NCBI GenBank assembly: GCA_025812035.1
Contig: GCA_025812035.1_4719.1
Source: a phage
Direction: 5' to 3' (one strand)
Length of the DNA stretch: 64,000 bases
Position 1 is the stretch's first letter; every line of letters starts with the position of its first letter. The notes under the pieces were generated by a model. It ran no database searches and was not told the DNA's origin. It saw nothing but the letters and a program-made list of their open reading frames with translations. Shown here one piece after another: positions 15,184 to 53,565 of the stretch. A program made the position numbers and the translations under genes.

Positions 15184-16074
15184 TTACGGCTTCAAATCCG
15201 AAATATCCCAGCGTACGTAACCTGTGTGTTCGATATCCTCGACCAATTGCTCGGTTTGATTTTCAACACCGACAACGGGAACCCAATTCAACTGTTGGCT
15301 ACGTATACCGATGTTAACCTCGACACGCTGCAGATCATCATTCCAACGAACCCCGGCCGGTTTCACAAAACCCAGCGGATGGATAAAACTAAGATCGTCG
15401 CTGAAATCACGAAGAACGCGCAATGTATCGATGGATGAAGGGTTATCATAGCGAACAGGACGTACGCTTTGCAGTTTATCGTATACCGCTCGAGCTGCGC
15501 GCTCGTCACGCCAGGTCGTCATGTATACCGGTTTTATACCACGTTTTAGAAGATGATCGATCTGGATCGCGATGTTATCGTGAACATACATGCAGCCCTG
15601 TTCGGTTTCGGTGTTGTAACCACCATCTTCTAACCGGTTCGGATACGTCAGATGGTCTACCGTCACAGCAACTCCTTCAGCGAACGTGTTCAACGGAAGA
15701 AAACGTTGCAGACTCGTTATCGGATAATCGGGCGACATCCCAGGACGGATATGCGCCATCGTCCCCCAACTGTCAGGGAAGCCATGTCGGTATATGTATT
15801 GCCGGAATACCTCATCCTGCATCCCTAACGGATACCATCGTGCAAGCCGCTGTTGCTCACCATCCTGAATAACAAAAAGCATTTCTTTGCGATTCGGCCA
15901 TCGATGATGTTCCACGGTCAAGCCATCAACAACCGGTCTTAAATTGTTCTTGATGTGTTCTGGAAGTTTATCCACCTCTTCACGACGATAAAAACGATCG
16001 ATGACGATGATGTCAACCTTCCCATGATTGAACCAGTTCATGTTAACTCCCTCTGTGGTGCGAAAACAAAACAT
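15184..16074 (-). CDS. paralog family H protein B (unknown function)
   Basis: See A. An alternative ATG at 16041 has SD GAGGGA. Confidence 0.65.
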   Translation of the reverse strand: MFCFRTTEGVNMNWFNHGKVDIIVIDRFYRREEVDKLPEHIKNNLRPVVDGLTVEHHRWPNRKEMLFVIQDGEQQRLARWYPLGMQDEVFRQYIYRHGFPDSWGTMAHIRPGMSPDYPITSLQRFLPLNTFAEGVAVTVDHLTYPNRLEDGGYNTETEQGCMYVHDNIAIQIDHLLKRGIKPVYMTTWRDERAARAVYDKLQSVRPVRYDNPSSIDTLRVLRDFSDDLSFIHPLGFVKPAGVRWNDDLQRVEVNIGIRSQQLNWVPVVGVENQTEQLVEDIEHTGYVRWDISDLKP

Positions 16075-16333
16075 CTAATTGCTCCCGTTGTTCTTTTAAG
16101 TATGCGGGAAGCTGGTCTTCCCGTACCGTTCCGATTTCTAACATGATGTACCAGCGTTGTTCGGAAGCCTGCCATTGAAAACTGCTCTGTAAACGTAGGA
16201 TGCTAGGATCATGTACCTTGCTTGCGCTGTAACGGTTGAACCAGCCCAGGTAAGCGGCTTTCCCCTCCTCATCGGCAACGTAACGCTGCACGCTGTTCTT
16301 CCCTTTGTTTTCGTATCCTGTTGCATGTATCAT
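16043..16333 (-). CDS. hypothetical small protein (~96 aa)
   Basis: ATG at 16333 overlaps the upstream stop as ATGA. ORF track gives 16043-16390. Confidence 0.5.
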   Translation of the reverse strand: MIHATGYENKGKNSVQRYVADEEGKAAYLGWFNRYSASKVHDPSILRLQSSFQWQASEQRWYIMLEIGTVREDQLPAYLKEQREQLDVLFSHHRGS

Positions 16334-17106
16334 GCGAACGTTTCTCCTGTAACGTGTTGTGGGCGTTGCAGCATGGTAGCATCCCAGCATACCAGCTTGC
16401 TTTTCTCAAGCATCTTCCGCGCCGTATCAACGCTAACGCCAGGATGCATGACAGGTAGCCAACGTTCGTTAAGCACCTTGGCTTCCAGGCGTTGCTTGCG
16501 CTTATTGTATTGTACCTCGCTAACCCATGCGTAACCGAAAGGATGGATAACCCGTGGGTAGTAACGTTTAAGCATCATCAGTCTTTGCTGATAAAGCTTA
16601 TCGGAACCCTCACCAACGAATAAGGCAACCCGTTCCAACCGCTTGGTGTAATACGTTCCGGTGGTATGATTGATCCAACCAGGAAGCGTTCGTACATCAT
16701 TTTCGAGTGTTCCTGATACGTTATGCACTTCACCGCTATACACCGTCCCAACAACCTGATTCGTTGCGTCCACCATCGACCGTGGCAAAGCATCCGCGGT
16801 AGGATACAACCATGCATCCCCAAGCTGCTCTCCCGACGCAAGTACCCGTAATCCGCTTGCGCTCACCCGCAACGGATGCTGGCTCTTATGCGCACGCAAC
16901 TGCACCACAGATAAGTCTACCGGATGGGCGATGCAACAGCCACGCTGACGGAACAGTCCAACCTCACCATCCACCCCTTCGATCATGCTTCCTTCCGAAC
17001 CGTTCCACCAACGTTTAACCTTCACGCATTCGGCTTGCACCGTTTCAGGCAACGTTAAATAATCGTGTTCAATAAACACCACATCAAAAATCAATGCTTC
17101 TTTCAT
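16330..17106 (-). CDS. paralog family H protein C (unknown function)
   Basis: Single HPFGY motif and related C-terminus. SD AGAGGA upstream. Confidence 0.65.
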   Translation of the reverse strand: MKEALIFDVVFIEHDYLTLPETVQAECVKVKRWWNGSEGSMIEGVDGEVGLFRQRGCCIAHPVDLSVVQLRAHKSQHPLRVSASGLRVLASGEQLGDAWLYPTADALPRSMVDATNQVVGTVYSGEVHNVSGTLENDVRTLPGWINHTTGTYYTKRLERVALFVGEGSDKLYQQRLMMLKRYYPRVIHPFGYAWVSEVQYNKRKQRLEAKVLNERWLPVMHPGVSVDTARKMLEKSKLVCWDATMLQRPQHVTGETFA

Positions 17107-17191
17107 CTAAAAAGATCCTCTGTTTTTTCACGTTAATTAAACAACGTATTGATTTCTATTCGATAGCAATACGAACATCGTACGTACGCAT

Positions 17192-17215
17192 CACTTAGGT
17201 AATATAGCCGTGAAA
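17192..17215. promoter_or_regulatory. conserved 24-nt motif (copy 2; CACTTAGGTAATATAGCCGTGAAA)
   Basis: One mismatch to the consensus. About 90 nt from the start of 16330-17106. Confidence 0.45.
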
Positions 17216-17858
17216 GGATTTGTGTTACAGAAAGGGTTTTGTTGTGTTTTAAGAAGGGATGGATAGTGATGTTATCTGAAAGGAGGATTTCAAGAAAGGT
17301 CTTGATTGAAGTAGGTGGAGTAAGTGAAGAGGTGAATAAACGAGAAGGGTTAGTTTGGTTGATGTAAGATGTTATCTTGTTATTGTTTTCATGTTTATCT
17401 TAGGTTATGTCTTAATTGTTCATATTCCTGATTGTTTAAGTTGTCTTATTTATCTTGTTTATATAAATAAAATTAAATTATAAAGTCAATCAACATGCTT
17501 ATAAGTTGGATAACTCAAAAAAACCATTTGTGATACTCTTCTTCACGTTGTTCATCAGAGTATCTCGTCTATACTCATTGCATTCGTATACGACATAACC
17601 GTTATACGCTAACGCTACGCTTATAGCTTGATAACTCTAAGGATAAAAACATAAACTCGCTTCGCTCGTTTAGTTTTTCTTTTTCTTAGAGTTATCTTGT
17701 TGCTCGTCTCTAAAGGACTTCGCTCCTCCCCCGTCCCCCGAAGGGGCCGAGGTCGTGGAAATTTTACTTTCCAAATACATTTACAACATCTGTAAACTTT
17801 TACTCCAGGTACTTAATCTTATCATTAGAAATTATCAAAGAGAATAATGACAGCATAA
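17216..17858. other. large noncoding region: candidate replication origin or noncoding RNA locus
   Basis: No ORF. C-depleted purine-rich stretch, AT-rich block (17455-17490), and five or more TTATCTT-type repeats. Confidence 0.35.
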
Positions 17859-39313: not shown

Positions 39314-41857
39314 TTACTGCTCTTCACGTTCCAACAGATACTCGGAAGCGGTAATACCATTTACCGTACGTACTGCTTTCAGACGAGTATCATCGTTCAG
39401 AATCACGGTAACAGACTGTAGACCTTTTACTTTGGTCTCGAAGGTCTTGAACACCTGATCCAGCATACGAGCAATGCTTGGGTTGGTTGCAGCTGACGCG
39501 TGAGTGTAACCGCTCTGGTTCAGATTCAGAATCTTGGCATTGGTCGGTACGCGAACAACAACATGCGGACGCATAGCGAACACGCTGTGATTGAACCAGT
39601 AAGCATCGTTGCTGTCTTCGTCAGTGACGATGTCTGGATTAACACGCATATCCTCAACAGCCGCATCAGCCAAACGACGTTCGATTTCGTCAGCGTCCAG
39701 AGAGCCATCTTTCTCCAGTTCTGCACGATACTCACTCATGGCAACCAAATGACGTTCACGATTCACCGTAGATTTTTCGTGAGCGACTTTCAGGTAGTCA
39801 TGCATGTTGTACAGTTCTGCCATAGACAGACGAATGTTCCACTGACCATCACCGTCACGGTTGCAGTAGAGACACTTCAGCATGTTGACCCAGGTATGGT
39901 AGCAATTGGAGAACTCATCTTCAATAAACTTCTGATCCATTTTAAGATCGTGAATCAGCCAGCCGGACAGTTCTCCGATATCATCAACGAAGCTAGAGAT
40001 GGTGGTTTCAGAGAAGTCCTTCGGTACGATACGTTTGATCAACTTGTTGACGTCTTTGGTCATGCTATCGTTCAGGAAATGCCAAATACGCAGAGGAATG
40101 ACATCTCGATACTGTTGCATGATCTGACGATAAGCCGCAATATCGTCGCTACGACCTTTATCAATAGACAACGCATCCAGGAATTCATGGATAGCATCCA
40201 GCTCTTTGTCGGTATAAGTTCCCAGATAGGAATTGACCGTGGCAAGGAATGCTAATGCGTCGTTTTGGTTGACGTCGGTGTTGGTCTGCTGGATGATCGC
40301 CACAGCAGCTTTGGTTTCAGCATCCTCAACGCTCGATGCTGCGATCGCATCGGTAACGGTAAACAGTTTCATTTCGCGTTGTTCGCCGACAACGATTGGT
40401 TCACGTTGAACCGGTTTGTTGAGGCTAACGCGGACAACCTCCGATTGCGCGATGCGGTCCAGTTTTATCATTTCCTGCTCTGCCATACGACGAGCGGTTG
40501 GATCTGATTCAAGTTCGATGTATTCCACTTCTTCCTCCGTGAGGGATGTAATGTCAACAATGGTTTCATGAAGAATTCCGTTTTCGTCGATACGTGCTCG
40601 ACGAGCGAAGTGCCTGAAGTCATACAACGTTGGCCAGCGACAATTAGGTGCGTAGTCTTTGGCCTTCAGACGCATCTGCATAAATTCTTCATGTTGAACA
40701 ACACGACCGTAACGCTTAGCATCTTCGGTCGCATCAATGGGATTAACGGTCTTTGTTGCCGTAGCGGAACGAACCGTACGGATGGGTTCCGGTTTAGTCT
40801 GCACAGGTTCAGGTTGAACAGGTTTCTGCTGTCCAGACTTAACATGCCATTCGGGTTCTTCGTACCGTTCAGCGAACTGTTCGGCTGCTGCAAAGATATC
40901 GTTGATACCACCGACGTCTCCTTCGGGATTCGTCGAGTAGATACGTGGTTGTGGTGCCTCGTAACGCGGCGCTGTGGTAGCAGGTGCATCATCAACGATA
41001 GGATCATCACCAACATCATACAAACGGTTGAACGCACAATCCTTCGAATCAATGTACGATGGAGCTTGTGGTTGAACAACCGTCGGTCGAGGTTGTGCGC
41101 CGTATCCTGGCATCGTTGGAGCCATACCACGCATAACCGCTGGACTCGGTTGGTATTGCGGTTGCGGATAGGTTCCATATGCAGGTTGCTGCGGTTGACC
41201 GTACCCGGTGCTGGCCATCGCATTTGCTTGTGGTCCGCGATACGTCATTCCCATCTGCATCACCTGTTGCTTCAAACCACGCGATTTTTGCGCGATTTGC
41301 GCCAGGCTCCCGTTTTTATTGAGCTGTGTATACTTATTCGCGGCTTCCGGGTTAACGCGTGATAACTCAATCGCACGATAATACTCCGGGTATTGATTAG
41401 GTTCAAAGAGCCACGTTACAAGATGATACAGCGCAACCGTGCTCACGGCAGCAGTGACGATCTGGTCGGTGGACGCATTCTGCGGCATCGGGTTGATGTA
41501 AGAGAATACGTTCCAGCAGCAATCTTCAACAAGCGATTCCATCATCATATCGCTATTGGTATAACGCGCGACGAAATCGGTTTGTATCTTATCTTGCTGT
41601 GCGAAGTCTTTCAAGACGTTAAAGATAGCCTGACGGATTTTGACGATCGTTGCTTCTTGGGTGATGAAGTTATAGTTCTGCTGATACGCCGGTTGCTGGT
41701 ATTGTGGTGGTTGATAGGTGTTATTCGGGTATGGGTTGTACGGCGGTTGCTGGTATTGTTGCTGACGTACCTGCTCCGCGGCATAATTAATCGTGCTCGC
41801 ATAAGGGTTTTCGCTATAGCCCATTTGCTGGTACATGTTGTTACTACCATTATACAT
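39314..41857 (-). CDS. large protein (847 aa) with Q/Y/P/N-rich prion-like low-complexity domains
   Basis: N-terminal region is QQ/PY-rich; a second Q/P/Y-rich stretch lies near residue 190. The remainder is a normal globular sequence. Confidence 0.65.
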   Translation of the reverse strand: MYNGSNNMYQQMGYSENPYASTINYAAEQVRQQQYQQPPYNPYPNNTYQPPQYQQPAYQQNYNFITQEATIVKIRQAIFNVLKDFAQQDKIQTDFVARYTNSDMMMESLVEDCCWNVFSYINPMPQNASTDQIVTAAVSTVALYHLVTWLFEPNQYPEYYRAIELSRVNPEAANKYTQLNKNGSLAQIAQKSRGLKQQVMQMGMTYRGPQANAMASTGYGQPQQPAYGTYPQPQYQPSPAVMRGMAPTMPGYGAQPRPTVVQPQAPSYIDSKDCAFNRLYDVGDDPIVDDAPATTAPRYEAPQPRIYSTNPEGDVGGINDIFAAAEQFAERYEEPEWHVKSGQQKPVQPEPVQTKPEPIRTVRSATATKTVNPIDATEDAKRYGRVVQHEEFMQMRLKAKDYAPNCRWPTLYDFRHFARRARIDENGILHETIVDITSLTEEEVEYIELESDPTARRMAEQEMIKLDRIAQSEVVRVSLNKPVQREPIVVGEQREMKLFTVTDAIAASSVEDAETKAAVAIIQQTNTDVNQNDALAFLATVNSYLGTYTDKELDAIHEFLDALSIDKGRSDDIAAYRQIMQQYRDVIPLRIWHFLNDSMTKDVNKLIKRIVPKDFSETTISSFVDDIGELSGWLIHDLKMDQKFIEDEFSNCYHTWVNMLKCLYCNRDGDGQWNIRLSMAELYNMHDYLKVAHEKSTVNRERHLVAMSEYRAELEKDGSLDADEIERRLADAAVEDMRVNPDIVTDEDSNDAYWFNHSVFAMRPHVVVRVPTNAKILNLNQSGYTHASAATNPSIARMLDQVFKTFETKVKGLQSVTVILNDDTRLKAVRTVNGITASEYLLEREEQ

Positions 41858-41891: not shown

Positions 41892-43691
41892 TCAATCGAT
41901 TATGTCACGATCGTTAATTTCTACAATTTCTTCATCGAATCGACCGACGTCTTTCTTCAAGCCTGCATTTGTTGCTGCAACGTCATTTGCAATTTGTGGG
42001 GTAACGATTAACCGACCACGCTCGTCGATAGGTGCGTACATACTGAACTTCTGACGTCCGGTTGGTTCGGAGTGTGGAAGATTCAGATAGCTCGCACAGA
42101 ACGGGATGGAACCACTAACCAAACGACTCTCGTCAGCCAACGCAGCACCGCCTGCGTTTTGGCTCTGGAGAACAACATGCGTGCTCACTTTGAACAGCAT
42201 GCAATCACCCGGTGACTGAATCGATGTTGCCACTTTCTCACGCTTATCACGATTGCTCTGGATATTGAGAATCGCTTCTGTTGCAACTTGATTTCGCAAC
42301 GCCTTCTGTACATCGCGATTGGTCATCTCTTTACGGTTGTTCTGTCGTTTACCACGTTCTGTGGTTTTAAGATGGAACCCCAGTTTAAAGATGCTCTTAC
42401 GCACATCCTCCATGACATATTCCAACACCATCAATTCCTTACCGAACATCGTCGTGGTATCAACACGACTCATTTCGATAGTAACATTGTCAATCAGATA
42501 CGCCATAAATTCGTAGAAGTCATCGCAAGGAATATTTTCCTGTTTGAACTTCTTCTGCTGAATTTCGTCGACGTAAAGATCAAGGCTATCGATGTGGTGG
42601 TTTACATCACGCAACAAACGCGCATCCGCGTTGTTGTTATTAAAGATAATCAAACCGAGTAATGTACGCCAATGGTCTGGCGCATTAGCGAACTCTTCAA
42701 CCGGATAGTCTTCCGGAAAACGATCGTAATAGCGGTCGATGAGATACAAGAACGCACCGACAAGGCCAAGAACAATACGTTCCGTGCCTCCACGTCTTAC
42801 AGCAATTTGAATATCAGGATGTTTATAACGTACAGCGTTAGCGCTACGGCTTTTACCGCTCTTACTAATACTAAAGCCTTTAGGAATAACCCCCATGGTG
42901 CGATAGATTACCCATTGGTCGCGCGGAAAATCGCGTTCAGCAAGATTCCGTCCGGTTACCGCTTCGACACCCGCGAAACGTCGGAAACATTCACCTACCC
43001 CGTACTTCGCAAAGAGATAGTGACCCAATGTGGTTACACTGGTGTGGTTGATGTTGTCACCGTTCACTTTACTTTGTTTGGTAAGATGATAGATTTGCGA
43101 CCAGGGTAACGATAGATAGTGACGATAATCGACACCGGTTGGAGTATCATTACTCAGGAACTGATACGGCGTACGTTTAACTGTGATTTTGTCACGCGGA
43201 AGCATGATGAACGCCATGTCTTTCGTGTAACTGATTACAGGGTCAGCGAGTACCGCACTGAGAATAAAGTTTGCACCACGTAGACGCATTTTACCACCCT
43301 GCCCTACTGCGGGTAATAGGAGAGGGTGTCGGATAATGCAGTAGTCCTTTCCTGGTTCACGACGGTCACCTGATTCCATCGCGCCATACCAGCGGAATTC
43401 TAACATCACCATAAACACATCGGACGGCGCAAGGTCAAAGGTCAGCTTACCGCTATCCTTCCCTTTGGTTTTCTTTCCTCCGCTTAAGTAGTGAAACTGT
43501 TCGCGGGCCACACAACGACGTAGGCCATGATACACCAGATCCTTAGGTAAACTATCTTTGCTGTTCCGCCAAAGACGATCAACATAGGACTCAACATCTT
43601 GCATCTTATCGACGACGATGTTGCGCGCTATCTTCTCGTTCATCTTCGGTGCAAGCCCAGCGACAGCTTTGCAGAATCTAGGATCCATCAC
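41892..43691 (-). CDS. hypothetical protein (599 aa)
   Basis: Long ORF. No motif recognised. Confidence 0.6.
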   Translation of the reverse strand: MMDPRFCKAVAGLAPKMNEKIARNIVVDKMQDVESYVDRLWRNSKDSLPKDLVYHGLRRCVAREQFHYLSGGKKTKGKDSGKLTFDLAPSDVFMVMLEFRWYGAMESGDRREPGKDYCIIRHPLLLPAVGQGGKMRLRGANFILSAVLADPVISYTKDMAFIMLPRDKITVKRTPYQFLSNDTPTGVDYRHYLSLPWSQIYHLTKQSKVNGDNINHTSVTTLGHYLFAKYGVGECFRRFAGVEAVTGRNLAERDFPRDQWVIYRTMGVIPKGFSISKSGKSRSANAVRYKHPDIQIAVRRGGTERIVLGLVGAFLYLIDRYYDRFPEDYPVEEFANAPDHWRTLLGLIIFNNNNADARLLRDVNHHIDSLDLYVDEIQQKKFKQENIPCDDFYEFMAYLIDNVTIEMSRVDTTTMFGKELMVLEYVMEDVRKSIFKLGFHLKTTERGKRQNNRKEMTNRDVQKALRNQVATEAILNIQSNRDKREKVATSIQSPGDCMLFKVSTHVVLQSQNAGGAALADESRLVSGSIPFCASYLNLPHSEPTGRQKFSMYAPIDERGRLIVTPQIANDVAATNAGLKKDVGRFDEEIVEINDRDIID

Positions 43692-43727: not shown

Positions 43728-45203
43728 TTACTTTTTCGATGAAGCTTTCTCAAGAATCTTGAAAAAGGTCATACCTATACCAACAACGGCCGCGGTTATA
43801 CTCGCAGCGGCTTTCCAGACATCGACGTTACGTTGACGTCGCGCTTCTTCCGCTTCGCGTTGTCTTTTTGCTTCATCATCACGACGGCGTAGCTCAGTTG
43901 TGAATTCATCGTGCTTACGTTTCGCGTCCTCGTCTCGGCGACGCATTTCAGCGATAAGCTCATCATGCTTACGTTTTGCCTCTTCATCACGACGTTTAAG
44001 TTCAGCTTGATGTTCTTCTCGTATTTGTTTACGAAGATCATCTTGACGTTTCATTTCGGCTTGGTGGTGTTCCATCCTACGTTCAGTATCGTCTTTAAGC
44101 TGTTTAACAATTTCCGCATGTTGCTTATTTTGTCGTTCCGCATCGGTTTTATACAATTCGTGTAATTGCTTTATTTCCGATGCGTGAGCGTCAGCCTGTC
44201 GTTTCATTTCGTTGGTATGATCGACCTGCAGTTGCTTTATTTCAGCCATCAGCCCTTTAAGGGTTTCTTCTGTTGACTTACGTTCATAGCTACGTTGGTC
44301 GAAATCATTTTTGTAGGCTTCTTTTTGGATGGGGTCGCGCCAATGCAATGCCGATTCACGTGTCGGAAAAACATTGTACTTCCACATCTCTTTTTCCAAA
44401 TCTTCGACCGGTACGAAGACGGAGTCATTATTCCCGAAGGTAACCAACATACCTGGCGCGCCTGCTCCATTCGTTGGTTTTATTTCGAACGCTTTTCCCA
44501 GAACGTTAACCCATAAGCTATACGGATTATGAAAGTCTGGTGGCGTCCAATGGATAGTGAGTTGCGTTCCGAGAATCCGGAAACCCTCTGTTTTTCCCGT
44601 CAAGCTTCGCGCACACGTTGCGATGTAGGGGTGATCAATCCCTTTCGTAACGTGGTCTGCGCTTTTGTATTCTCCTTTAACTTTTACGACTGCCACGTTG
44701 ATTTGCGCGACATAAATAGGTTGATTAAAGTTCAACGTGTTGAGGTCAATTTGGCATACTTCATCCAGCGTATCGTACCAGTCTTGCTGGTCTAATAGAC
44801 GCGGTATTTTCTCCGTGTTAACGATGCGACGGATATGCGGTTTCCTTATCGCGTAACCTGTGCCGTTTTTAACACGAAGTATATCCCGACGTCTACCCGC
44901 GTAGACGAAGTTTCTGAATGCACCATTCGCATTAGATACGTCATGGCTGTCAACTATTACAGGACTACGAAATTTTGAACGCCTTACGATCCTGAATGTA
45001 TTGCCGTCCTCAACCCTACCAGGAATGTACTGGAACATATTGTCGGAGGTGATAACCAACACGGTATGGTTGGATTCATTAATACACGCCCATCCTAATT
45101 CCAGGTCATATAACGGTTCAGCATAACCGTCAATGCGATATGCGTGCGTACCATCCCACGGTTCGAACGCGGTATCACATATTGGCATGGAGGGCATCGT
45201 CAA
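43728..45203 (-). CDS. tail-anchored membrane protein with charged coiled-coil repeats
   Basis: Globular N-terminal domain, about 150 aa of K/R/E/D-rich coiled coil including three 18-aa tandem repeats, then C-terminal hydrophobic anchor AAASITAAVVGIGMTFF. Confidence 0.65.
   Translation of the reverse strand: MTMPSMPICDTAFEPWDGTHAYRIDGYAEPLYDLELGWACINESNHTVLVITSDNMFQYIPGRVEDGNTFRIVRRSKFRSPVIVDSHDVSNANGAFRNFVYAGRRRDILRVKNGTGYAIRKPHIRRIVNTEKIPRLLDQQDWYDTLDEVCQIDLNTLNFNQPIYVAQINVAVVKVKGEYKSADHVTKGIDHPYIATCARSLTGKTEGFRILGTQLTIHWTPPDFHNPYSLWVNVLGKAFEIKPTNGAGAPGMLVTFGNNDSVFVPVEDLEKEMWKYNVFPTRESALHWRDPIQKEAYKNDFDQRSYERKSTEETLKGLMAEIKQLQVDHTNEMKRQADAHASEIKQLHELYKTDAERQNKQHAEIVKQLKDDTERRMEHHQAEMKRQDDLRKQIREEHQAELKRRDEEAKRKHDELIAEMRRRDEDAKRKHDEFTTELRRRDDEAKRQREAEEARRQRNVDVWKAAASITAAVVGIGMTFFKILEKASSKK
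43860..44020. repeat. three imperfect ~54-bp tandem repeats inside the 43728-45203 CDS
   Basis: Encode ELKRRDEEAKRKHDELIA / EMRRRDEDAKRKHDEFTT / ELRRRDDEAKRQREAEEA. Coordinates approximate. Confidence 0.5.
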
Positions 45204-45437: not shown

Positions 45438-45534
45438 GACTTATGTATCACGGTGCCGGATGAATGTCCGGTGCAATGAAACCATCTGCAACGTTGTCGT
45501 CAAGAATATCATCCAACGAAGCAGCTACGGTAGT

Positions 45535-47757
45535 TCAGTTAGTCTGAACCGGCAGCTTGATGTTTTCAGTGTAGACCTTACGCAGGTTCACGACGTTAAT
45601 CAGACCCAGCAGCGGGCAGTTGTTAACGAAGCGGCAGCGCGGCTGAACCATGGTTTCTTTAGAAACCTGACCGTTACGGGTAACCTGAGCAACAGATACC
45701 AGTTCCGGTACATACAGGAACATACCGAAGGTCAGCGGATCCGGAGAACCCTGGATACCACGAGACAGGGTCACGAAGATCTTATCACGCAGCAGGACGT
45801 TCGGGTTATCTACAACCACGAAGTTGAAGCTTACACCAACGGTACGGAAATCACCATCGGTCTGCAGGAACTGCGGGATGTAGTTGTCGGTTGCTACTAC
45901 GCAACGCGGTTTCTCATCAGCGTTGGAAGACAGCAGCTGCAGAGCTGGCTGATAACCAGACTCAGAGTACATGCGGTATGCCATCTCACGAATCACGTTC
46001 ATGATCGCAGCGGACACTTCAGCACGACGTTCTGCAGTGGTGGTACCCTGAACGGATTTCGCCAGGTCCAGGTTGATTTCTTCGAACCACGGACGGATCA
46101 GGTAACGACCGAAACCTTCGATCTGGATGTCACCGAACTGACGGAAGCGAGAGGTCGCAACTGCTTTCAGTGCGTCTTTGTAGCTGAACAGTTTCTCAAC
46201 CATCAGGTTGTCGAAACGTGCGTTAGCCGCTTGGATCAGAACGTCCAGGTCAGCAGCGTTTTCTTCCCAATCAAGCGGACGAGGAATGGAGAACGGAGCC
46301 AGCAGACCGATTGCGTAACGCTCTTGCTTCATGTTGAAGTCAAGGTGCTTACCACGTTCACGACGGTTGCTGTTGTTACGACGGATACGCAGTTCGTAAC
46401 CAACCAGTTTGAAGCTCAGGTCGTCAGCCAGGTCTTTGAATTCTTGGCTCTTACGCGGCTGTTCGATGTTGTCCTGATCAACCAGGCGATACAGTTCAGC
46501 GTTAGCGCCGTTAACACGCAGACCCGCTTTCTCTACGTTGGAAGAACCGTAAACTTCGATAGCCAGCTGAGCAGCGGATTTCGCATCGATGATGTCCTGC
46601 AGCGCTTCGGCTTTCGCACCTTTAACGTCAACGGTGTTCTCATCAACGAAGATGGAGTGAGTGTCGAACGCCAGGGTCATTTTGCGGAAGTCGCCTTCCA
46701 GAGATTTCTGGAAACCGTTGGTGATCAGACCGGATACGTCGAACGGAACGTAAGAGGTTTTGCTGTGCTTAGCGGATTTGATTTCCACCAGGATTTTGGT
46801 CAGCGTGATCTGAGCATCCAGCGCGTCGGTGTTGTCGCTGTAACCGTTAGCCAGAATGCTATCGTCTTCAGCGATACCGATCATGTCGATCAGTTTATCA
46901 ACAGCCAGGTAAGACGTTTTATAAGTTACGCCTTTAATTTCGATGTCACGCGGAGCAACGATAGCTTTGTCAACGAAGTACTGCGCGTTAGCATCGTCAG
47001 CACGATAGATCGGGTGCAGGTCGGTCACGTCGTTGGACAGAACGTCGTTGTACATGAACGCGTCCAGCAGCGGACGACGTACCCAATCAGCCGGAGTACC
47101 GTCAGCGTTACGACGCAGATGGTTGAATACCAGCGGACGACGGAAAGATACGTCATAACCGATCTGGTTCGGAGCCAGAACGATGGTGTTGTACAGTTCG
47201 TTACCCATGCGGCTCAGACGAGAAGCCTTCACGTTGAACACAACGGAGTACGGCATCATGTCGCGCAGTTCTTTCTGGTCGTAGGACAGCTGAACCAGTT
47301 CTTCAGATTCGCAACCGCAGGAATCAGCAGCCATCATGACGAAGTTAGAGCTGTCAACTTCACGACCTGACGGAGTGGTGCTGATGTTCATGGAACGTGC
47401 TTGTTTAGCGTATTCCACCGGGTTACCATGAGCCAGCATGATCAGTGCTGCTGCACGAGCCTGCTGTGCGTTCATGGTGAACAGCTGTTCTTCAATACGC
47501 TGCTTCTCTTCCGGAGTGGTGGTTTCGAAGCCCAGCATAGACAGAACCGGTTCTTCTGCTTTACGGATGTCGCTGCTGAAGCTCTTAACATCCATATCGT
47601 TAACCAGTTTGTCCATGGATTTGAAATCAACCTTAGAAGCAGATTCCATAGACAGGAAGGTGTTTTCCAGACCTTTGTCTGCTGGTTTGCTACCATTAGC
47701 GGTCAGGAACTGGCGAGTGGCCGCGACCTGCTGGCTAAGAAGGGTTTTATCATTCAT
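45535..47757 (-). CDS. major virion structural protein (~740 aa; major capsid candidate, tail sheath not excluded)
   Basis: Strongly optimised codons (CTG, CGT, GGT, ACC, GAA). Monocistronic between a promoter-like region and a hairpin. Size is typical of jumbo-phage capsid proteins. Confidence 0.5.
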   Translation of the reverse strand: MNDKTLLSQQVAATRQFLTANGSKPADKGLENTFLSMESASKVDFKSMDKLVNDMDVKSFSSDIRKAEEPVLSMLGFETTTPEEKQRIEEQLFTMNAQQARAAALIMLAHGNPVEYAKQARSMNISTTPSGREVDSSNFVMMAADSCGCESEELVQLSYDQKELRDMMPYSVVFNVKASRLSRMGNELYNTIVLAPNQIGYDVSFRRPLVFNHLRRNADGTPADWVRRPLLDAFMYNDVLSNDVTDLHPIYRADDANAQYFVDKAIVAPRDIEIKGVTYKTSYLAVDKLIDMIGIAEDDSILANGYSDNTDALDAQITLTKILVEIKSAKHSKTSYVPFDVSGLITNGFQKSLEGDFRKMTLAFDTHSIFVDENTVDVKGAKAEALQDIIDAKSAAQLAIEVYGSSNVEKAGLRVNGANAELYRLVDQDNIEQPRKSQEFKDLADDLSFKLVGYELRIRRNNSNRRERGKHLDFNMKQERYAIGLLAPFSIPRPLDWEENAADLDVLIQAANARFDNLMVEKLFSYKDALKAVATSRFRQFGDIQIEGFGRYLIRPWFEEINLDLAKSVQGTTTAERRAEVSAAIMNVIREMAYRMYSESGYQPALQLLSSNADEKPRCVVATDNYIPQFLQTDGDFRTVGVSFNFVVVDNPNVLLRDKIFVTLSRGIQGSPDPLTFGMFLYVPELVSVAQVTRNGQVSKETMVQPRCRFVNNCPLLGLINVVNLRKVYTENIKLPVQTN

Positions 47758-47906
47758 TGAAAGTATCCTTTACAGAATTAACTTATATAAGTCGGTCGAT
47801 AGACCATAGCGTACACGCGTGCATGCGCCACTATAGTATCAGTAAACACTTACCGTTGTTTAGGCTGTGATACAACACTAAAAATGCCGCATAACTTTTT
47901 CCTACG

Positions 47907-48527
47907 TCACAAACGACGCAGGCGATAATGGATGGAACGATTGGTGCAATATGAACGGAACAGCGGCAATTGCGCAACTTCCGCAAGACTCATATTAATT
48001 CGCAGGTGTTCAATAACGGCGCTGTAGTTATCAGCAATACGATCGCTCAATAACTCTTCTGCCAATAAAGGAAGACAATCGACAACAATCGCGATCATAT
48101 CCTCATTAACATAACGCACCCGAACACTCAACGGACGTTTGTCTGGGCTGTAAGTTGGATCCGCCAAACGACGTTCAATATCACGCGGATAGCTCGTCAG
48201 TAAATGGTAGTAACCATTATCATAACGATTGATGTACTCACACAGCACATCAACATTCTTTTCTGGCGGCAAACCTGTTTCGTCATAGTGATACGCAAAC
48301 ATACCACCAAGCAGGTTGTTAAGATGAACTGCAGGGTTCGCTTGTTCGTGTTCTTTCGTGATGAAGAAAGGCACGTTCTGAGCTGCGAAATAAAAACCTA
48401 CATCATTGGGCGATAGTATGCCGAAAAGACTTTTAGGATCCAACAGCACCTGTAAGTCATCACGCGCATTTCGAATGATTGCGTGTTCTACCCAATTCGG
48501 AACGACGAGATATCGGAGTTCCTTCAT
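47907..48527 (-). CDS. hypothetical protein (206 aa)
   Basis: ORF with SD AGAGG. Confidence 0.55.
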   Translation of the reverse strand: MKELRYLVVPNWVEHAIIRNARDDLQVLLDPKSLFGILSPNDVGFYFAAQNVPFFITKEHEQANPAVHLNNLLGGMFAYHYDETGLPPEKNVDVLCEYINRYDNGYYHLLTSYPRDIERRLADPTYSPDKRPLSVRVRYVNEDMIAIVVDCLPLLAEELLSDRIADNYSAVIEHLRINMSLAEVAQLPLFRSYCTNRSIHYRLRRL

Positions 48528-48566
48528 TATGATTACCTCTTTGTAAGTATCGAAAGGATTGAGTCG

Positions 48567-50177
48567 ATGGACCCAAAACAGATAGCCATTAAGATTATTA
48601 CGTTACTGTTTCGTAACGCACAATTGAACCATCCAGATCCCAGTACGATCGACCATGTTAAATCCGTCTTAGATAAAGTCGAACCCCCGAAAAACCATCT
48701 CGCTACGGACATAGATAGAGAGGTTTTCAACAACCTGATGAATACCATTCATTGGATGTTGGAACAACCATTATCGGAACCTTTCGATAAACAACAGTTG
48801 TTACAAAGGATACGTTTGGATTGTCTTGAGCAAAGCAATCTTTACGAGATTCTTGCCGACGGACTGTACGATATCGAAGACGATGCTCATATCAGTAAGG
48901 TCTGTTCGCTTTATTACAACGAATTGCGTAACTTGGTTACCCGTCGTCGTGTTTTCGAAACCTTTAAAAACACATACATGGATATCAGTAATGGGCGTCT
49001 TGGGGATAAAGAATTTTTCGACGCGATGGCGAATTTGAAACTCTCGCTAGACAGTATCGAAATGGATACCGAAAATCCCGAAGAGATGTCGTGTATGATT
49101 GACGGTTTTATCGCCGACAGTGAAGACGATATCGAGAAAGTCGAACGTATGTTCATCAAAGCGATGGAACGTAACAGTCCTGAAGGTGGATTTGTAACCG
49201 GCTGGCAAGGTTTTAATAAAATGCTAGGGTCGGTCGGTGTTTTACGTCGCGGTACCTTAGGACTGATTGGTGCGATGCAGCACAGGAACAAGTCGGGCGT
49301 GCTGTTAAAACTGTTCACACATCTGGCGTTGTACAATAAACCTCATTTCTTTTTTCCGGAGCGAGCAAAGAAAGCATTACTGATTCATTTGTCAACAGAA
49401 AACGAAGTAGAAGAAAACACGCTTCAGATATACAAAAACATGCGAGAACAGGAAACAGGCGAATATGTCGATATTCGTAAGATTGACCCTCGCGAGGCAT
49501 CACGTTATGTGTTGAAGGTTTTCAATGACGCGGGTTTCTCTGTGTGTATGCGTCGTGTTGATGGGATGAGCTATAAACAACTTGCGAACCTCATCGACCA
49601 TTTTGAACGCATGGGCTATGAAGTCATGGCGTTGTTCATCGACTATCTGAAAATGTTCTCATCGGAAGGGCTGGATAGAAACGGACCAACCGGCGCATGG
49701 CTACAAGAACTCTTCAACAAAGTCCGTAACCTCTGCAGCGTTAAACGTATTTTAGGTATGACCGTACACCAGCTATCATCCGACGCGAAGATGCGTGCGC
49801 GTGACGGTAACGATGAAGAGTTTGTTGACCAGGTCGCAGGCTTAAGTTACTGGGATGGCTGTAAAGGGATTGACCGTGAGATCGATCTTGAAGTGATTGT
49901 TGATATCGTTAAGGAACCGGGTAAACGTCAAAGCTGGCAAGTCTTTGCATTAGGGAAAGACCGTCAACCGGATAACGGTTCAACGAAACCTGAGGATAAA
50001 CATTTCACGATGCCGTTCCAAACCATCGGGATGCTTCCTGATGATTACGGTAAGAAAGCAGTATACTGCCGCAAGGTTGGCGGACAACCTGTCTCTGAGG
50101 GAGGCAAAGGTCCGTGGAACAAGTTCGATGAAAACGCAGCGCCGAGCAATGAATTACAATTTGATTTAGAATTTTAA
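48567..50177 (+). CDS. DnaB-like replicative helicase (RecA-fold), non-canonical P-loop
   Basis: Walker B-like ALFIDYL, H3-like VHQLSSDAK, and a P-loop-position segment GAMQHRNKS. ATG at 48567 has SD AAGGA; ORF track start is 48483. Confidence 0.5.
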   Translation: MDPKQIAIKIITLLFRNAQLNHPDPSTIDHVKSVLDKVEPPKNHLATDIDREVFNNLMNTIHWMLEQPLSEPFDKQQLLQRIRLDCLEQSNLYEILADGLYDIEDDAHISKVCSLYYNELRNLVTRRRVFETFKNTYMDISNGRLGDKEFFDAMANLKLSLDSIEMDTENPEEMSCMIDGFIADSEDDIEKVERMFIKAMERNSPEGGFVTGWQGFNKMLGSVGVLRRGTLGLIGAMQHRNKSGVLLKLFTHLALYNKPHFFFPERAKKALLIHLSTENEVEENTLQIYKNMREQETGEYVDIRKIDPREASRYVLKVFNDAGFSVCMRRVDGMSYKQLANLIDHFERMGYEVMALFIDYLKMFSSEGLDRNGPTGAWLQELFNKVRNLCSVKRILGMTVHQLSSDAKMRARDGNDEEFVDQVAGLSYWDGCKGIDREIDLEVIVDIVKEPGKRQSWQVFALGKDRQPDNGSTKPEDKHFTMPFQTIGMLPDDYGKKAVYCRKVGGQPVSEGGKGPWNKFDENAAPSNELQFDLEF

Positions 50178-50202
50178 ACGCAAAAAAAAAGAATGTACGG
50201 TT

Positions 50203-50234
50203 CCCTCCTCCAACCCGTAAGGGAAGGAGGAGGG
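50203..50234. terminator. conserved two-tier GC hairpin (family copy 9)
   Basis: CCCTCCTCC-AACCCGTAAGGGAA-GGAGGAGGG at a convergent junction, preceded by A9. Confidence 0.55.
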
Positions 50235-50249
50235 TTATGACCGTGTTGG

Positions 50250-50576
50250 CTAACTTATCGTCATGAATTCACTCGGTGAGAATTTCCAACCATTCTCATT
50301 GAGAAGTGTGTTGAGTTTCGCTGCAACGATAAGCCATGCATGCATAGCCGTTACGTCGTATTGGCGATTTACCCGACGTTGGTTTTCGATATTGATTTGC
50401 TCCTGTTCAGTGATGTTTGGATAAAGTGCGATAGCGCTGGGCTTACCCAAAGCGCTAGTCATCACCGCGGTACATTCACTGATAATGTTGTTTAAGTGGT
50501 AGTTGTACACCGTTCCACGCATGACACGATGACGGCATTCGATAATAGCGTCGTAAATGATTTCTCGAGTAATCAT
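50250..50576 (-). CDS. hypothetical protein (108 aa)
   Basis: ORF. Confidence 0.5.
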   Translation of the reverse strand: MITREIIYDAIIECRHRVMRGTVYNYHLNNIISECTAVMTSALGKPSAIALYPNITEQEQINIENQRRVNRQYDVTAMHAWLIVAAKLNTLLNENGWKFSPSEFMTIS

Positions 50577-50582
50577 GATAAC

Positions 50583-51086
50583 TTAAAACATGCGGTCGTT
50601 TTTAGCACGGGCGTCCATTACGAGATCGTAGATACCTGCGGTTCGTAAACATTCTTCGTAATAACGATGTGTGCCTTCCTCAGCCATCCACGATAATCCT
50701 CGGTTATCCGCAACAATAACCAGTTTGTTATTGTTGAACGCGCACACCACACGGTAGGTCGCGTTGTTATTCGGATCGCGAGTGATAAGCTCGTAGACGC
50801 CATTGACAGGTTTACTGAATTCACCGTTTAACGGGACAAGTTCAGTAGTACCTTCAGCGAACGTCGCGTTGATTGGTGATGGATCTTTAGCGATAACTGT
50901 ATATTCCACGTTATGTTCTTTACTGGTCATAATGCCGAAGTAAGAACTAATAGGGGAACGTGGTACACTAAGAATATTAAACATGAATGTTGTCCTCTTA
51001 TTTGGATTTAGATTGTTGGGTTTGTCATTGAGAAATGAATTAGACGATGAGCGCCCAGGTAGTAAGCACACCGCTTGCGAATTCAA
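50583..51086 (-). CDS. hypothetical protein (167 aa)
   Basis: ORF. Confidence 0.5.
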   Translation of the reverse strand: MNSQAVCLLPGRSSSNSFLNDKPNNLNPNKRTTFMFNILSVPRSPISSYFGIMTSKEHNVEYTVIAKDPSPINATFAEGTTELVPLNGEFSKPVNGVYELITRDPNNNATYRVVCAFNNNKLVIVADNRGLSWMAEEGTHRYYEECLRTAGIYDLVMDARAKNDRMF

Positions 51087-51609: not shown

Positions 51610-51683
51610 CGTTTTACCTTTCTATGTTAGGTGGGTTGCGGATAGAAGAATCAATGCATAGACTGATTTAAGTTTGTTAAGGT

Positions 51684-52586
51684 TTACTTAGTCTTCGAGT
51701 TACAAGGACTGACCTGTTGTTGTACTCGTTGAATTGTGTCGTAGTACGGGTTAGATTGGTTGAACATGTTGTTGTGTGGATGATAGCCGTATGGCGCATT
51801 TTGCCTTGTTGATGAGAAACCTTGTTGAGAAGGACGATTTGAATTAACCGCGAGTACGTAGTAAACCAAATTTTGACGGTCGAACGTTCCTTCGTTTTTG
51901 AAGGTGTCGGCGTAGGTGCTTATCGCTGGAGCGAGTCTATCACCATCGGCGGTAATAATTGTACCGTCTGGGTAAACTTCACGAACGACGCACCATGTTC
52001 CGATAAGAACGTCTTTGGGTGGCGTATTGCCGTATCCGGTTGTAACGGTAAGGTAAGTATCGAACCCTTCAGAACAACAAGGATGACGATAGATAGGTCC
52101 TGTCATTTCCGTTCTATCGGTATCATCGCATTTCTCTATTGAGAGCGATGATGTGTCGGTTTTGAAATTGTCAAATTCTTTCTTTAAGTCGATTACAGGT
52201 TCTTTCGTATAGTACTTCTTGATTGCTTTGACGTAAAGATCAGGAACGGTTGTCAGCATTCCGTTATACCTGATTCTCAGGTTTTCGAGTAATCCAAAGA
52301 TACTCGCGCATGCTTGTTCGCGAGGTTTTGTAAGATAAGAGATCCCCCCAGGAACGCTGGGATCTTTGAGAAAGAAGATTGCGTTATTGTCGTTGTGTGG
52401 TGCATTGAAGAAAACGATTGATTCGATATATACGGAGCATAGGCTGTCGTTGGCGTCGTCAGATAACACCCAGATGCACTCATCGGTCGTCTTGTTTAAA
52501 AGTTCTGTTTTGTCCACCAAACGTTGTTTCATTGCGAGGAAATGTGCCTGTTGTTCAGCGGATAATTCACGATAAATAGTGGTCAT
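51684..52586 (-). CDS. paralog family Y protein (member 1)
   Basis: VREVYPDGTIIT and CxxxxDxYLT(V/I)T motifs shared with 52672-53451. ATG at 52586 has SD AAGGAG. Confidence 0.55.
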   Translation of the reverse strand: MTTIYRELSAEQQAHFLAMKQRLVDKTELLNKTTDECIWVLSDDANDSLCSVYIESIVFFNAPHNDNNAIFFLKDPSVPGGISYLTKPREQACASIFGLLENLRIRYNGMLTTVPDLYVKAIKKYYTKEPVIDLKKEFDNFKTDTSSLSIEKCDDTDRTEMTGPIYRHPCCSEGFDTYLTVTTGYGNTPPKDVLIGTWCVVREVYPDGTIITADGDRLAPAISTYADTFKNEGTFDRQNLVYYVLAVNSNRPSQQGFSSTRQNAPYGYHPHNNMFNQSNPYYDTIQRVQQQVSPCNSKTK

Positions 52587-52671
52587 ACTCGGCTCCTTGA
52601 TTACGATAAGGATGATTGCGGTTTTGTGATGCTGGTAGGGCCCTAAACAAAGGAGCCCTACCAATATTGGG

Positions 52672-53451
52672 TTACTCAGGATCGGCGTAGAAATGATGGG
52701 GATAGCCGGAGTACGATCCCGCGTTACCGGCTATGGATTTTTTCTGGGAATCGACGACGAGCGCATAGAACTGTCGGGAATTTGTTAGCGTTGAGAAATA
52801 AGAGGAAAGGACTTTTTCATTCAACGCATCGCAAGGTAGACAGGTGCGACCGCAAAACGTCACAATACGACCGTCAGGATAGATCTCACGAATCATTCTC
52901 CATTCGCCGATATCAACCGGCGATGGCGCTGCTACAGCACCCGTTATTGTTAAGTAACGATCGTACGTGGTGTGGCATTCTGGATGAATGTAGATCGGTT
53001 GGGTATCAGTGCTTTCGTTTTCTACCTGATCTTTGCTTACGTATACCTCAAGATAAATCGTTGGTAGTCCGGTTAGAACGCCGGTATCGCGACGTTTTTT
53101 GGTAATCCGGGGACGGATATTATCGAGCACACCTTCCAGTTTTTCTGCGATTTCGTCAGCCGGTAATATATACCCGTATGTTGGTTCTAGATCATCATCG
53201 TGACTGAATAAGATACGACAGTCGTTGTTATTTTCTGGTGCTTCAGGCGGAAAGATGATGGCTTGAACCGTATGACGTTCTGCGATATAAAATCCTTCAG
53301 GTCCCTCAGTTTTGGTAAGTGTAAAGGACCAGGATGAATGATCTTCAAGTGATGTGCCTTCCAGGAAAAAGTTCGTCCGGATTGGTGCGTCCCATTTTGT
53401 GATCATATTGGCGTGACCGATAGCGCCTAACTTTTGATAAATATCTGTCAT
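52672..53451 (-). CDS. paralog family Y protein (member 2)
   Basis: IREIYPDGRIVT. ATG at 53451 has SD GAGGA; ORF track start is 53547. Confidence 0.55.
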   Translation of the reverse strand: MTDIYQKLGAIGHANMITKWDAPIRTNFFLEGTSLEDHSSWSFTLTKTEGPEGFYIAERHTVQAIIFPPEAPENNNDCRILFSHDDDLEPTYGYILPADEIAEKLEGVLDNIRPRITKKRRDTGVLTGLPTIYLEVYVSKDQVENESTDTQPIYIHPECHTTYDRYLTITGAVAAPSPVDIGEWRMIREIYPDGRIVTFCGRTCLPCDALNEKVLSSYFSTLTNSRQFYALVVDSQKKSIAGNAGSYSGYPHHFYADPE

Positions 53452-53507
53452 GATTGTATCCTCGGTTGTTAAGAGAAATTTACAGCGATAACAGTAACCG
53501 TTGTTAT

Positions 53508-53531
53508 CACCTAGGTAATATAGTCGTGAAA
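53508..53531. promoter_or_regulatory. conserved 24-nt motif (copy 4; CACCTAGGTAATATAGTCGTGAAA)
   Basis: Part of the ~90-bp cassette 53508-53597. Confidence 0.45.
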
Positions 53532-53565
53532 TAAACTGGATTAACAAGAATAAGACAGCATAGAA

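Follow-up and report, generated by a model that had tools for sequence, protein, structure and literature searches.

A divergent DnaB-family gene in a Goslar-like phage

Does a DnaB-like protein whose P-loop carries an asparagine in place of the glycine before the Walker A lysine still act as a helicase? The question arises from a gene on the plus strand of a 64,000-nucleotide (64-kb) stretch of phage DNA (the window), in which a sequence-only reading had recognized such a protein and had proposed either a functional variant P-loop or an inactive loader or regulator paralog. The open reading frame (ORF), located as in that reading, extends from an ATG at 48567 to a stop codon ending at 50177 and encodes a complete protein of 536 amino acids. 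We favour this ATG over an alternative GTG start at 48483 (adding 28 codons) because an AAAGGA sequence precedes it at a plausible Shine-Dalgarno distance, because the annotation of Escherichia phage Goslar uses the matching start and because the equivalent MD.K opens all homologs.

The window is collinear with the genome of Goslar (89-93% identity), a nucleus-forming jumbo phage, and the gene region shares 95.4% nucleotide identity with Goslar positions 45704-48203. The Goslar ortholog, gp043, is annotated as "DnaB-like replicative helicase" and differs from our protein by 6 amino acids. At the codon level, 74 synonymous and 6 nonsynonymous (conservative) differences separate the two genes, none of them in the motifs described below. 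Both the gene and the divergent DnaB family are therefore already known: the annotated ortholog is nearly identical, the family is curated in Pfam and its motif is in print. Specifically, Iyer et al. (2021; PMC7824862) described a divergent DnaB as a hallmark of phiKZ-like (group 1 jumbo) phages, noted that its ATP-binding motif is modified and its Mg2+ site intact, and predicted it to be active.

Profile comparisons and a structural model place the protein in the DnaB family

The protein matches the Pfam family PF20307 (divDNAB, "Divergent DnaB-like ATPase") with 400.9 bits (cut-off 26; E = 4.9e-120) over model positions 3-355 of 356. Among PHROG profiles, phrog_3213 was matched over the full length at 7e-123 and the canonical DnaB profile phrog_19 at 3.6e-11. 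The family comprises 654 clusters at 50% identity (E <= 1e-30). Pfam DnaB_C (PF03796) gave no match to our protein at E <= 1; precomputed PF03796 matches are present in three family members (P0004, P0013 and P0020). A phmmer search of the PDB with the single sequence returned chance matches only (ribosomal protein S6 and CD38, E > 0.1), and a family profile was therefore required. This profile retrieved the DnaB chains 4nmn, 2vye and 2r6a (E about 1e-4) and brought Walker A, H1a, Walker B and H3 into register, and an hhalign comparison with Escherichia coli DnaB (E = 3.5e-6 over 256 columns, at a probability of only 88%) also brought H4 and GK-x-R into alignment. Judged from these alignments, the sequence similarity to canonical DnaB is weak.

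An AlphaFold2 (AF2) model of the protein (pLDDT 81) exhibits the two-domain DnaB architecture, with an N-terminal helical domain containing a hairpin, a linker helix and a C-terminal RecA domain. The N-terminal helical region (about residues 1-202, positions 48567 to 49172, plus strand; pLDDT mostly 80-90) forms a globular helical head with long helices at residues 106-141 and 147-167 and a further helix at residues 186-202. In the model, the two long helices probably correspond to the DnaB hairpin and helix 186-202 appears to occupy the position of the linker helix. When the model was compared to the PDB with Foldseek, the best 50 matches were all DnaB, T4 gp41 or SPP1 G40P, the alignments to these full-length proteins spanning ~500 columns with a best E of 6e-15 and a probability of 1.0. 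TM scores were only 0.4-0.55 and rmsd values 10-16 A, which may reflect a different orientation of the domains. Assignment of the protein to the DnaB helicase family, first proposed from the letters of the sequence, is thus confirmed by four independent kinds of evidence (Pfam, PHROG, profile-to-DnaB alignments and Foldseek), and the HHpred-type comparison that had been recommended as a check places its motifs on Walker A, Walker B and H3 of DnaB.

The P-loop deviation is shared by the family

The variant P-loop reads GAMQHRNKS (residues 235-243, positions 49269 to 49295, plus strand) and is flanked in the AF2 model by strand 231-236 and helix 242-256. It aligns to AARPGMGKT of Aquifex DnaB and to AARPSMGKT of E. 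coli DnaB, and in both profile alignments Asn241 stands opposite the Gly of ..MGKT and Lys242 opposite the Walker A Lys, as had been claimed for this protein. The motif (A-M-Q-H-R-N-K-S) consequently departs from the canonical Walker A of DnaB-type helicases in having Asn at the Gly position. The sequence-only reading had named a canonical Walker A elsewhere in the ORF as an observation that would speak against it, and a regular-expression search for [AG]xxxxGK[ST] detected none anywhere in the ORF.

Few positions of P-loop NTPases are as strongly conserved as the glycine that precedes the Walker A lysine. Among 171 members of the family, however, this residue is Tyr in 69, Phe in 67, Asn in 17, Trp in 7, Gly in 4, His in 4 and Ser in 1, corresponding to about 80% Tyr/Phe, about 10% Asn and about 2% Gly, so that glycine is replaced in 167/171. 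The P-loop deviation is therefore family-wide and not peculiar to this gene, with Asn as a minority state that is found in several unrelated sequence contexts within the family. The four members with Gly, be it reverted or retained, have an otherwise identical motif, which suggests that the position is simply permissive. The modified-loop context that characterizes the family, A-L/M-Q-H-x-X-K-[ST]-G, is present here as GAMQHRNKSG. DnaB P-loops are classic intein sites, and we considered inteins as the source of extra length in the unusually long members P0041, P0147 and P0159. We rejected this possibility: the insertions, which follow residues 259, 302 and 521, spare the P-loop and do not resemble inteins.

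A bulky Tyr, Phe or Asn before the lysine could alter nucleotide binding in ways that the sequence does not predict. One can go further and propose that the change from Gly to an aromatic residue or to Asn throughout the family goes beyond neutral drift and, combined with the conserved Gln-His that precedes it by two to three residues, creates a different nucleotide-binding geometry that is specific to the chimallivirus replisome, a proposal that we regard as unlikely. Such a geometry could for example change the NTP preference, alter the coupling of hydrolysis or make the protein insensitive to a host or defence factor directed against canonical DnaB. If true, the family would constitute a natural experiment on the extent to which Walker A of a working ring helicase can diverge from GK[ST].

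The other catalytic residues are conserved

Beyond the P-loop, the motifs of DnaB follow in the same order. Glu278 (positions 49398 to 49400; this and the following motifs are all on the plus strand) aligns to the Glu of FSLEM in Aquifex and E. coli DnaB and corresponds to the H1a catalytic glutamate of DnaB (SLEM). Walker B, ALFIDYL (residues 355-361, positions 49629 to 49649), contains Asp359 and aligns to (V/I)DYLQL of DnaB, and motif H3, QLSSD (residues 402-406, positions 49770 to 49784), contains Gln402 and aligns to AQLS / SQLN; these are the two motifs on which the original assignment had been based, and the profile alignments uphold both. Asp440 (positions 49884 to 49886) corresponds to the H4 motif QDADL (IDREIDLEV versus IEQDADLIM of E. 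coli DnaB) and Lys464-Asp-Arg466 (positions 49956 to 49964) to GKQRNG of E. coli DnaB (ALGKDRQP versus IIGKQRNG). From general knowledge of DnaB, the K-x-R of the latter motif presumably provides the trans-acting Lys and the arginine finger.

The DnaB-order set, comprising the Walker A Lys and Ser/Thr, the Glu, Asp and Gln, the H4 Asp and K-x-R, is thus complete, and the Mg2+-binding and catalytic residues (Walker B Asp and catalytic Glu) are intact. Across the family, Lys242, Ser/Thr243, Glu278 and Asp359 are invariant (171/171) and Tyr360 of Walker B is present in 170/171 members, while Gln402 is retained in 166/167, Lys464 and Arg466 each in 165/167 and Asp440 in 163/167. Our best reading of the sequence is that a residue other than Gly before the P-loop lysine reflects a lineage-specific remodelling of the loop that would be compatible with catalysis, rather than being a sign of inactivation.

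The gene resides in a conserved capsid block

The helicase gene lies on the strand opposite to both of its neighbours (47907 to 48527 and 50250 to 50576, both on the minus strand), an arrangement that had been noted at the outset, that the ORF list corroborates and that is kept in distant relatives. Upstream and divergent, the ORF at 47907 to 48527 encodes 206 amino acids without a Pfam or PHROG match of its own. It sits at the position that a gene of the PhiKZ_gp119 family occupies in relatives, between the capsid gene and the helicase gene, and its positional equivalents in the relatives L007, L008 and L009 carry PF25619; we record it as context for the helicase gene. Next comes the gene of the phiKZ-type major capsid protein (MCP; positions 45535 to 47757, minus strand; phrog_3231 at 4e-165), a syntenic marker of the helicase block. 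The order MCP(-), gp119(-), divDNAB(+) recurs in L007 and L009, and synteny between helicase and capsid genes is kept at 31-33% protein identity. A phiKZ-like genome with a conserved MCP block, as is typical of PF20307 members, is therefore found here as well, and the capsid/helicase block has been termed 'Block 5' of the chimallivirus core genome (Prichard et al. 2023; PMC10299810).

Other DNA-metabolism genes in the window encode SbcC-like and RuvC-like proteins and a thymidylate kinase, the last according to the Goslar annotation. A PHROG match labelled 'polymerase' (positions 41892 to 43691, minus strand) was rejected as a DNA polymerase: the protein is homologous to PHIKZ123, which forms a chain of PDB entry 7OGP, in our reading the phiKZ non-virion RNA polymerase. 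The helicase accordingly stands, as had been stated, as the sole replication-fork protein recognized in the window. A scan of positions 47700-50700 for sigma-70 promoters and intrinsic terminators found no more sites than in shuffled sequence; these phages use their own RNA polymerases.

No second DnaB homolog was detected

The rest of the genome had been proposed as a place to look for a second, canonical helicase, and we searched the 64-kb window together with the whole Goslar genome, used as a proxy for the full phage genome. When every ORF of the window and of Goslar was searched with the family HMM, the helicase gene and its ortholog were the only matches, and the Goslar annotation lists one DnaB-like helicase and two SF2 helicases, gp160 and gp164. 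A phmmer search of the same ORFs with residues 92-359 of Aquifex DnaB retrieved nothing, not even the known helicase, so that this probe lacks the sensitivity needed to exclude a second one. The evidence against a second DnaB thus comes from the family HMM, the Walker A regular expression and the RefSeq annotation. One candidate, the ORF at 43728 to 45203 (minus strand), contains ARSLTGKT, which resembles A-R-P-x-M-G-K-T. It was rejected as a helicase, having no Pfam or PHROG match, and the rest of the protein consists of a charged repeat region and a C-terminal hydrophobic helix.

Probable function and alternative explanations

For this gene, the analysis establishes homology and architecture, the conservation of its motifs, its uniqueness in the genome and its conservation between strains. 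Its product, a member of PF20307, is very probably the replicative helicase of a nucleus-forming jumbo phage of the Goslar type (Chimalliviridae), active with a variant P-loop. Of the two alternatives raised by the sequence-only reading, the functional variant P-loop is favoured by the retention of the other catalytic residues. An inactive paralog serving as loader or regulator fits less well, because these residues are invariant or nearly so, because no second DnaB was found in the closest complete genome (Goslar) and because the helicase is a conserved core gene. Prichard et al. (2023; PMC10299810) list a replicative helicase among the chimallivirus core genes and report that gp315 of Erwinia phage RAY, a 'DnaB-like replicative helicase', localizes in the phage nucleus, the one experimental observation that our literature searches yielded for the family.

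By homology, the protein would assemble into a DnaB-type ring, most likely a hexamer, with the N-terminal helical domains forming the collar and the C-terminal RecA-fold domains binding NTP at the subunit interfaces. The NTP and Mg2+ would be held by the P-loop residues Lys242 and Ser243 together with Asp359; Glu278 would activate the water, Gln402 would sense the gamma-phosphate, and the adjacent subunit would contribute Lys464 and Arg466 to complete the site. Hydrolysis of NTP around the ring would then power 5'-to-3' movement along the lagging-strand template and unwind the viral DNA within the phage nucleus. Our literature searches turned up no biochemical or structural work on a divDNAB family member, the phiKZ and Goslar helicases included, and the predicted ATPase/helicase activity, hexamer and polarity therefore rest on homology; these properties are inferred, as is the structural consequence of the substitution. 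Neither a primase nor an SSB partner has been recognized in phiKZ-like phages (PMC4889955).

On the other hand, an active RecA-fold NTPase ring might serve mainly in a process other than fork unwinding, such as recombination-dependent replication, branch migration (RadA/Sms-like) or a different DNA transaction inside the phage nucleus, while one of the SF2 helicases unwinds the forks instead. Goslar does encode the SF2 helicases gp160 and gp164, the window contains SbcC-like and RuvC-like recombination genes, and no primase is known in phiKZ-like phages (PMC4889955), but the architecture (N-terminal helical domain, linker and RecA domain) is specific to DnaB, the best 50 Foldseek matches are all replicative helicases and include no other RecA-fold family, and co-evolution links the gene to the phage DNA polymerase and further core genes (PMC10299810, PMC7824862). 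We consider such a non-fork role improbable.

We consider it highly improbable that the protein is a catalytically dead, DnaB-derived pseudo-helicase (a loader, scaffold or regulator) that lost nucleotide binding along with the glycine. Replacement of this glycine in nearly all family members, and the lack of an activity report for the family in the literature that we searched, would fit this explanation. Against it, the Lys, Ser/Thr, Glu, Asp, Gln and K-x-R residues are invariant or nearly so across a family that has diverged to 22-35% identity, and such retention is not expected of a protein that neither binds nor hydrolyses NTP. No other DnaB-family protein that could be loaded or regulated was found in the window or the Goslar genome, and the four Gly-bearing members with their otherwise identical motif also argue against it. 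Finally, the notion that the odd motif stems from errors in sequencing or assembly, from a wrong frame or from a chance ORF, for which we found no support, deserves next to no credence and is already refuted, because GAMQHRNKSG recurs in three independent clusters of proteins (P0001-P0003, 74-98% identity), its codons are unchanged in Goslar and the ORF is full length and collinear with >150 homologs.

Comparison with known systems

The closest known system is the PF20307 divDNAB family itself, including the orthologs Goslar gp043 and RAY gp315, with which our helicase shares the variant P-loop architecture x-A-[LM]-Q-H-x-X-K-[ST]-G, the catalytic residues and the genomic place beside the phiKZ-type capsid gene. 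The Goslar clade differs from the rest of the family in details only, namely in its P-loop, Met-Gln-His-Arg-Asn versus the consensus Leu-Gln-His-Asn-Tyr/Phe, and in a C-terminal tail that is about 20 residues longer. The descriptive value of the present analysis lies in the tally of the variable position before the lysine against the fixed catalytic residues, and the family would be a sensible choice for initial biochemical or structural work on the chimallivirus replisome.

With the DnaB proteins of E. coli, Geobacillus and Aquifex, T4 gp41 and SPP1 G40P, the helicase shares the two-tier architecture and the RecA-fold core, at only 12-15% identity in structural alignments. The Walker A Lys and Ser/Thr, H1a Glu, DYL, QLS, H4 Asp and GK-x-R of bacterial DnaB have one-to-one counterparts, whereas A-A-R-P-x-M-G-K-T differs in that 'RP' is replaced by Q-H and the Gly before Lys by Asn. 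In a further difference from DnaB, no DnaG-type primase partner is known in the phiKZ-like phages. More distant are the MCM helicases, which have no homology to divDNAB beyond the P-loop NTPase level: they adopt the AAA+ and not the RecA/SF4 fold, and their replacement is a small Ala or Ser rather than Asn, Tyr or Phe. They nonetheless provide a precedent, being active replicative helicases whose Walker A (GDPxx[A/S]KS) carries a residue other than Gly before the lysine.

A divergent DnaB-like helicase orthologous to Goslar gp043

The ORF at 48567..50177 (+) encodes a protein of 536 aa, in which the motifs quoted in the sequence-only reading were found at residues 235-243 (GAMQHRNKS), 355-361 (ALFIDYL) and 402-406 (QLSSD). 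We rejected an upstream extension from a GTG at 48483 because it overlaps the divergent neighbour, because the ATG at 48567 is preceded at a plausible distance by a Shine-Dalgarno-like AAAGGA, and because the Goslar annotation uses the corresponding ATG and all homologs begin with MD.K at the equivalent position. Escherichia phage vB_EcoM_Goslar is a jumbo phage that forms a nucleus and belongs to the phiKZ-like group (Chimalliviridae), and the window is collinear with Goslar 43-60222 at 89-93% identity, save for two variable patches, with 95.4% identity over the 2.5 kb surrounding the helicase gene. The helicase is the ortholog of Goslar gp043 (RefSeq label 'DnaB-like replicative helicase'), from which it differs at 80 codons: 74 synonymous changes and 6 conservative replacements, all 6 outside the motifs. 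The gene is nearly identical to an annotated one, and the variant P-loop that it encodes is already known and curated.

Comparison with Goslar also delineated two divergent regions. At 51667-53447 the window carries ~1.8 kb where Goslar has only ~80 bp, with two (-) strand ORFs, 51684..52664 (326 aa) and 52672..53547 (291 aa), that are paralogous (27% identity, E = 2e-22). Neither product matched a PHROG, and tblastn of the 326-aa product, the one of the pair that was searched, against 50,697 phage records returned no match; the two look like a strain-specific accessory gene pair. At 12537-17493 the window is mosaic relative to Goslar and ~2 kb longer, with only short pieces aligning (77-85% identity); the stretch probably holds variable accessory genes flanked by conserved blocks.

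The Walker A position is altered within an otherwise recognizable DnaB motif set

Several searches support a DnaB-like identity. The protein scored 401 bits (cut-off 26) for the Pfam family PF20307 (divDNAB, 'Divergent DnaB-like ATPase'), and it matched PHROG 3213 ('DnaB-like replicative helicase') along its full length as well as the large canonical DnaB group, PHROG 19 (3.6e-11). Homologs fell into 23 clusters in a word-indexed search, and an exhaustive profile search (E <= 1e-30) yielded 654 representatives at 50% identity. A 24-member family profile retrieved the DnaB chains 4nmn, 2vye and 2r6a from the PDB at ~1e-4, and hhalign against E. coli DnaB (sequence from NC_000913) gave E = 3.5e-6 over 256 columns.

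Retaining the residue correspondences on which the PDB profile alignment and the E. coli hhalign agree, we aligned IGAMQHRNKSGV of the helicase with the Walker A motif VAARPSMGKTTF of E. coli DnaB, so that Asn241 stands in place of the Gly and Lys242 is the Walker A Lys. The remaining motifs pair as HLSTENE with FSLEMP (H1a; Glu278 as the catalytic Glu), LFIDYLKMF with IMIDYLQLM (Walker B; Asp359), TVHQLSSD with ALSQLNRS (H3; Gln402), IDREIDLEV with IEQDADLIM (H4; Asp440) and ALGKDRQP with IIGKQRNG, in which Lys464 and Arg466 correspond to the trans-acting Lys and the arginine finger. The Walker A, Walker B and H3 assignments of the sequence-only reading were thereby borne out, and no canonical [AG]xxxxGK[ST], which would have counted against that reading, occurs elsewhere in the ORF.

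An AlphaFold2 model based on a 24-sequence alignment (mean pLDDT 81) has a helical domain at the N-terminus, followed by a pair of long helices, one more helix and a RecA-like alpha/beta domain, where the variant loop (residues 237-241) is placed between strand 231-236 and helix 242-256, the standard P-loop position. The top 50 Foldseek matches in the PDB were replicative helicases only, namely DnaB of Vibrio, Geobacillus, E. coli, Thermus and Aquifex, T4 gp41 and SPP1 G40P, with alignments of ~500 columns, probability 1.0 and a best E of 6e-15. TM-scores were modest (0.4-0.55), probably because the two domains are oriented differently towards each other.

Catalytic residues are fixed across the family while the P-loop position varies

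Among 171 divDNAB members aligned to the family HMM, the residue before the P-loop Lys is Tyr in 69, Phe in 67, Asn in 17, Trp in 7, Gly in 4, His in 4 and Ser in 1, within the signature A-[LM]-Q-H-x-[YFWN]-K-[ST]-G. The odd P-loop is therefore not special to this gene; a non-Gly residue prevails across the family. Since Asn occurs in several unrelated motif contexts, this state probably has more than one origin. By contrast, Lys242, Ser/Thr243, Glu278 and Asp359 are each kept in 171/171 members, Gln402 in 166/167, and Lys464 and Arg466 in 165/167 each. Fixed nucleotide-, metal- and water-contacting residues beside one freely varying loop position are what an active enzyme that tolerates change at a single site would show, and not what a decayed one would. 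Of the two alternatives initially offered, an inactive loader or regulator paralog is disfavoured by this strict conservation, which instead favours a functional variant P-loop.

A search for a second, canonical helicase, with Goslar as a proxy for the parts of the phage genome beyond the window, revealed no further DnaB: across all stop-to-stop ORFs no shorter than 80 aa from the window and Goslar, the family HMM matched this gene alone, and in the Goslar annotation a single DnaB-like helicase appears beside two SF2 helicases (gp160 and gp164). An ORF at 43728..45203 (-), ortholog of the hypothetical Goslar gp040, bears a DnaB-Walker-A-like ARSLTGKT and was considered as a second helicase. 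It was rejected: the product has no Pfam or PHROG match, the C-terminal third consists of Lys/Arg/Glu-rich repeats (RRDEEAKRKHDE-like units) and ends in a hydrophobic helix, and we judge the motif to be a chance match.

The helicase lies in a conserved gene block

As noted from the sequence, the helicase is transcribed opposite to both neighbours, 47907..48527 (-) and 50250..50576 (-). The arrangement of capsid gene (-), then a small gp119-like gene (-), then helicase (+) is also found in contigs whose helicases share just 31-33% identity with this one, so the opposite orientation is an old, conserved feature of the block and does not point to recent insertion. In three relatives the small gene (L007 5348-5839, L008 1469-1999, L009 5423-5956) matches PF25619 (PhiKZ_gp119); its positional equivalent in the window, 47907-48527 (-), encodes 206 aa, for which neither Pfam nor PHROG gave a detectable match. 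Because just 39 bp lie between its start codon and the helicase start codon, the two divergent promoters must either overlap or sit within coding sequence. The major capsid gene, 45535..47757 (-), wholly contains an antisense 636-aa open frame at 45460-47370 (+), low in complexity and rich in Val, Thr and Gln, which is almost certainly a mechanical ORF and not a gene.

The claim that the helicase is the only replisome component in the window holds, the 'polymerase' at 41892..43691 (-) being taken as non-virion RNA polymerase. This product has no Pfam match and only the PHROG 2943 label 'polymerase', likewise given to its ortholog Goslar gp039. It is homologous to PHIKZ123 (E = 2.6e-40), a chain of PDB 7OGP, an entry that we interpret as the phiKZ non-virion RNA polymerase; we rejected the product as a DNA polymerase, as it would be an RNA polymerase subunit. 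The 847-aa ORF at 39314-41857 (-), ortholog of the hypothetical Goslar gp038, has as its sole Pfam match a sub-threshold Cas9_C_2 (E = 0.0015, 18.7 bits against a cut-off of 27), probably noise. Kazlauskas et al. 2016 note that neither a primase nor an SSB has been detected in phiKZ-like phages (PMC4889955). Prichard et al. 2023 assign 'one helicase' to core block 5 of the chimallivirus genome, together with the capsid gene. The replicative helicase serves them as a marker for phylogeny, and they show that its ortholog in Erwinia phage RAY, gp315, is located with the DNA in the interior of the phage nucleus (PMC10299810).

Predicted mechanism and comparison with known systems

Iyer et al. 2021 concluded that the divergent DnaB of phiKZ-like phages, the same proteins as covered by PF20307, is catalytically active, with a modified ATP-binding motif and an intact Mg2+ site (PMC7824862). 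They term the modified motif Walker B, whereas in our alignments it is Walker A that is altered, Walker B being intact. Literature searches for biochemical or structural studies of a divDNAB member gave none. By homology, the protein would act as a DnaB-type ring helicase binding NTP between adjacent RecA domains, with Lys242, Ser243 and Asp359 predicted to coordinate phosphates and Mg2+, Glu278 to activate water, Gln402 to sense the gamma-phosphate, and Lys464 and Arg466 to act in trans. The Tyr, Phe or Asn side chain before the Lys may or may not have a role of its own, and we think it rather improbable that the remodelled P-loop alters how nucleotide is handled in a manner peculiar to chimallivirus replisomes. 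The residue preceding the Lys in P-loop NTPases contributes its backbone amide, not its side chain, to phosphate binding, so a non-Gly residue would be tolerable if loop geometry adapts. A precedent is provided by the MCM helicases, which carry Ala or Ser before the Walker A Lys.
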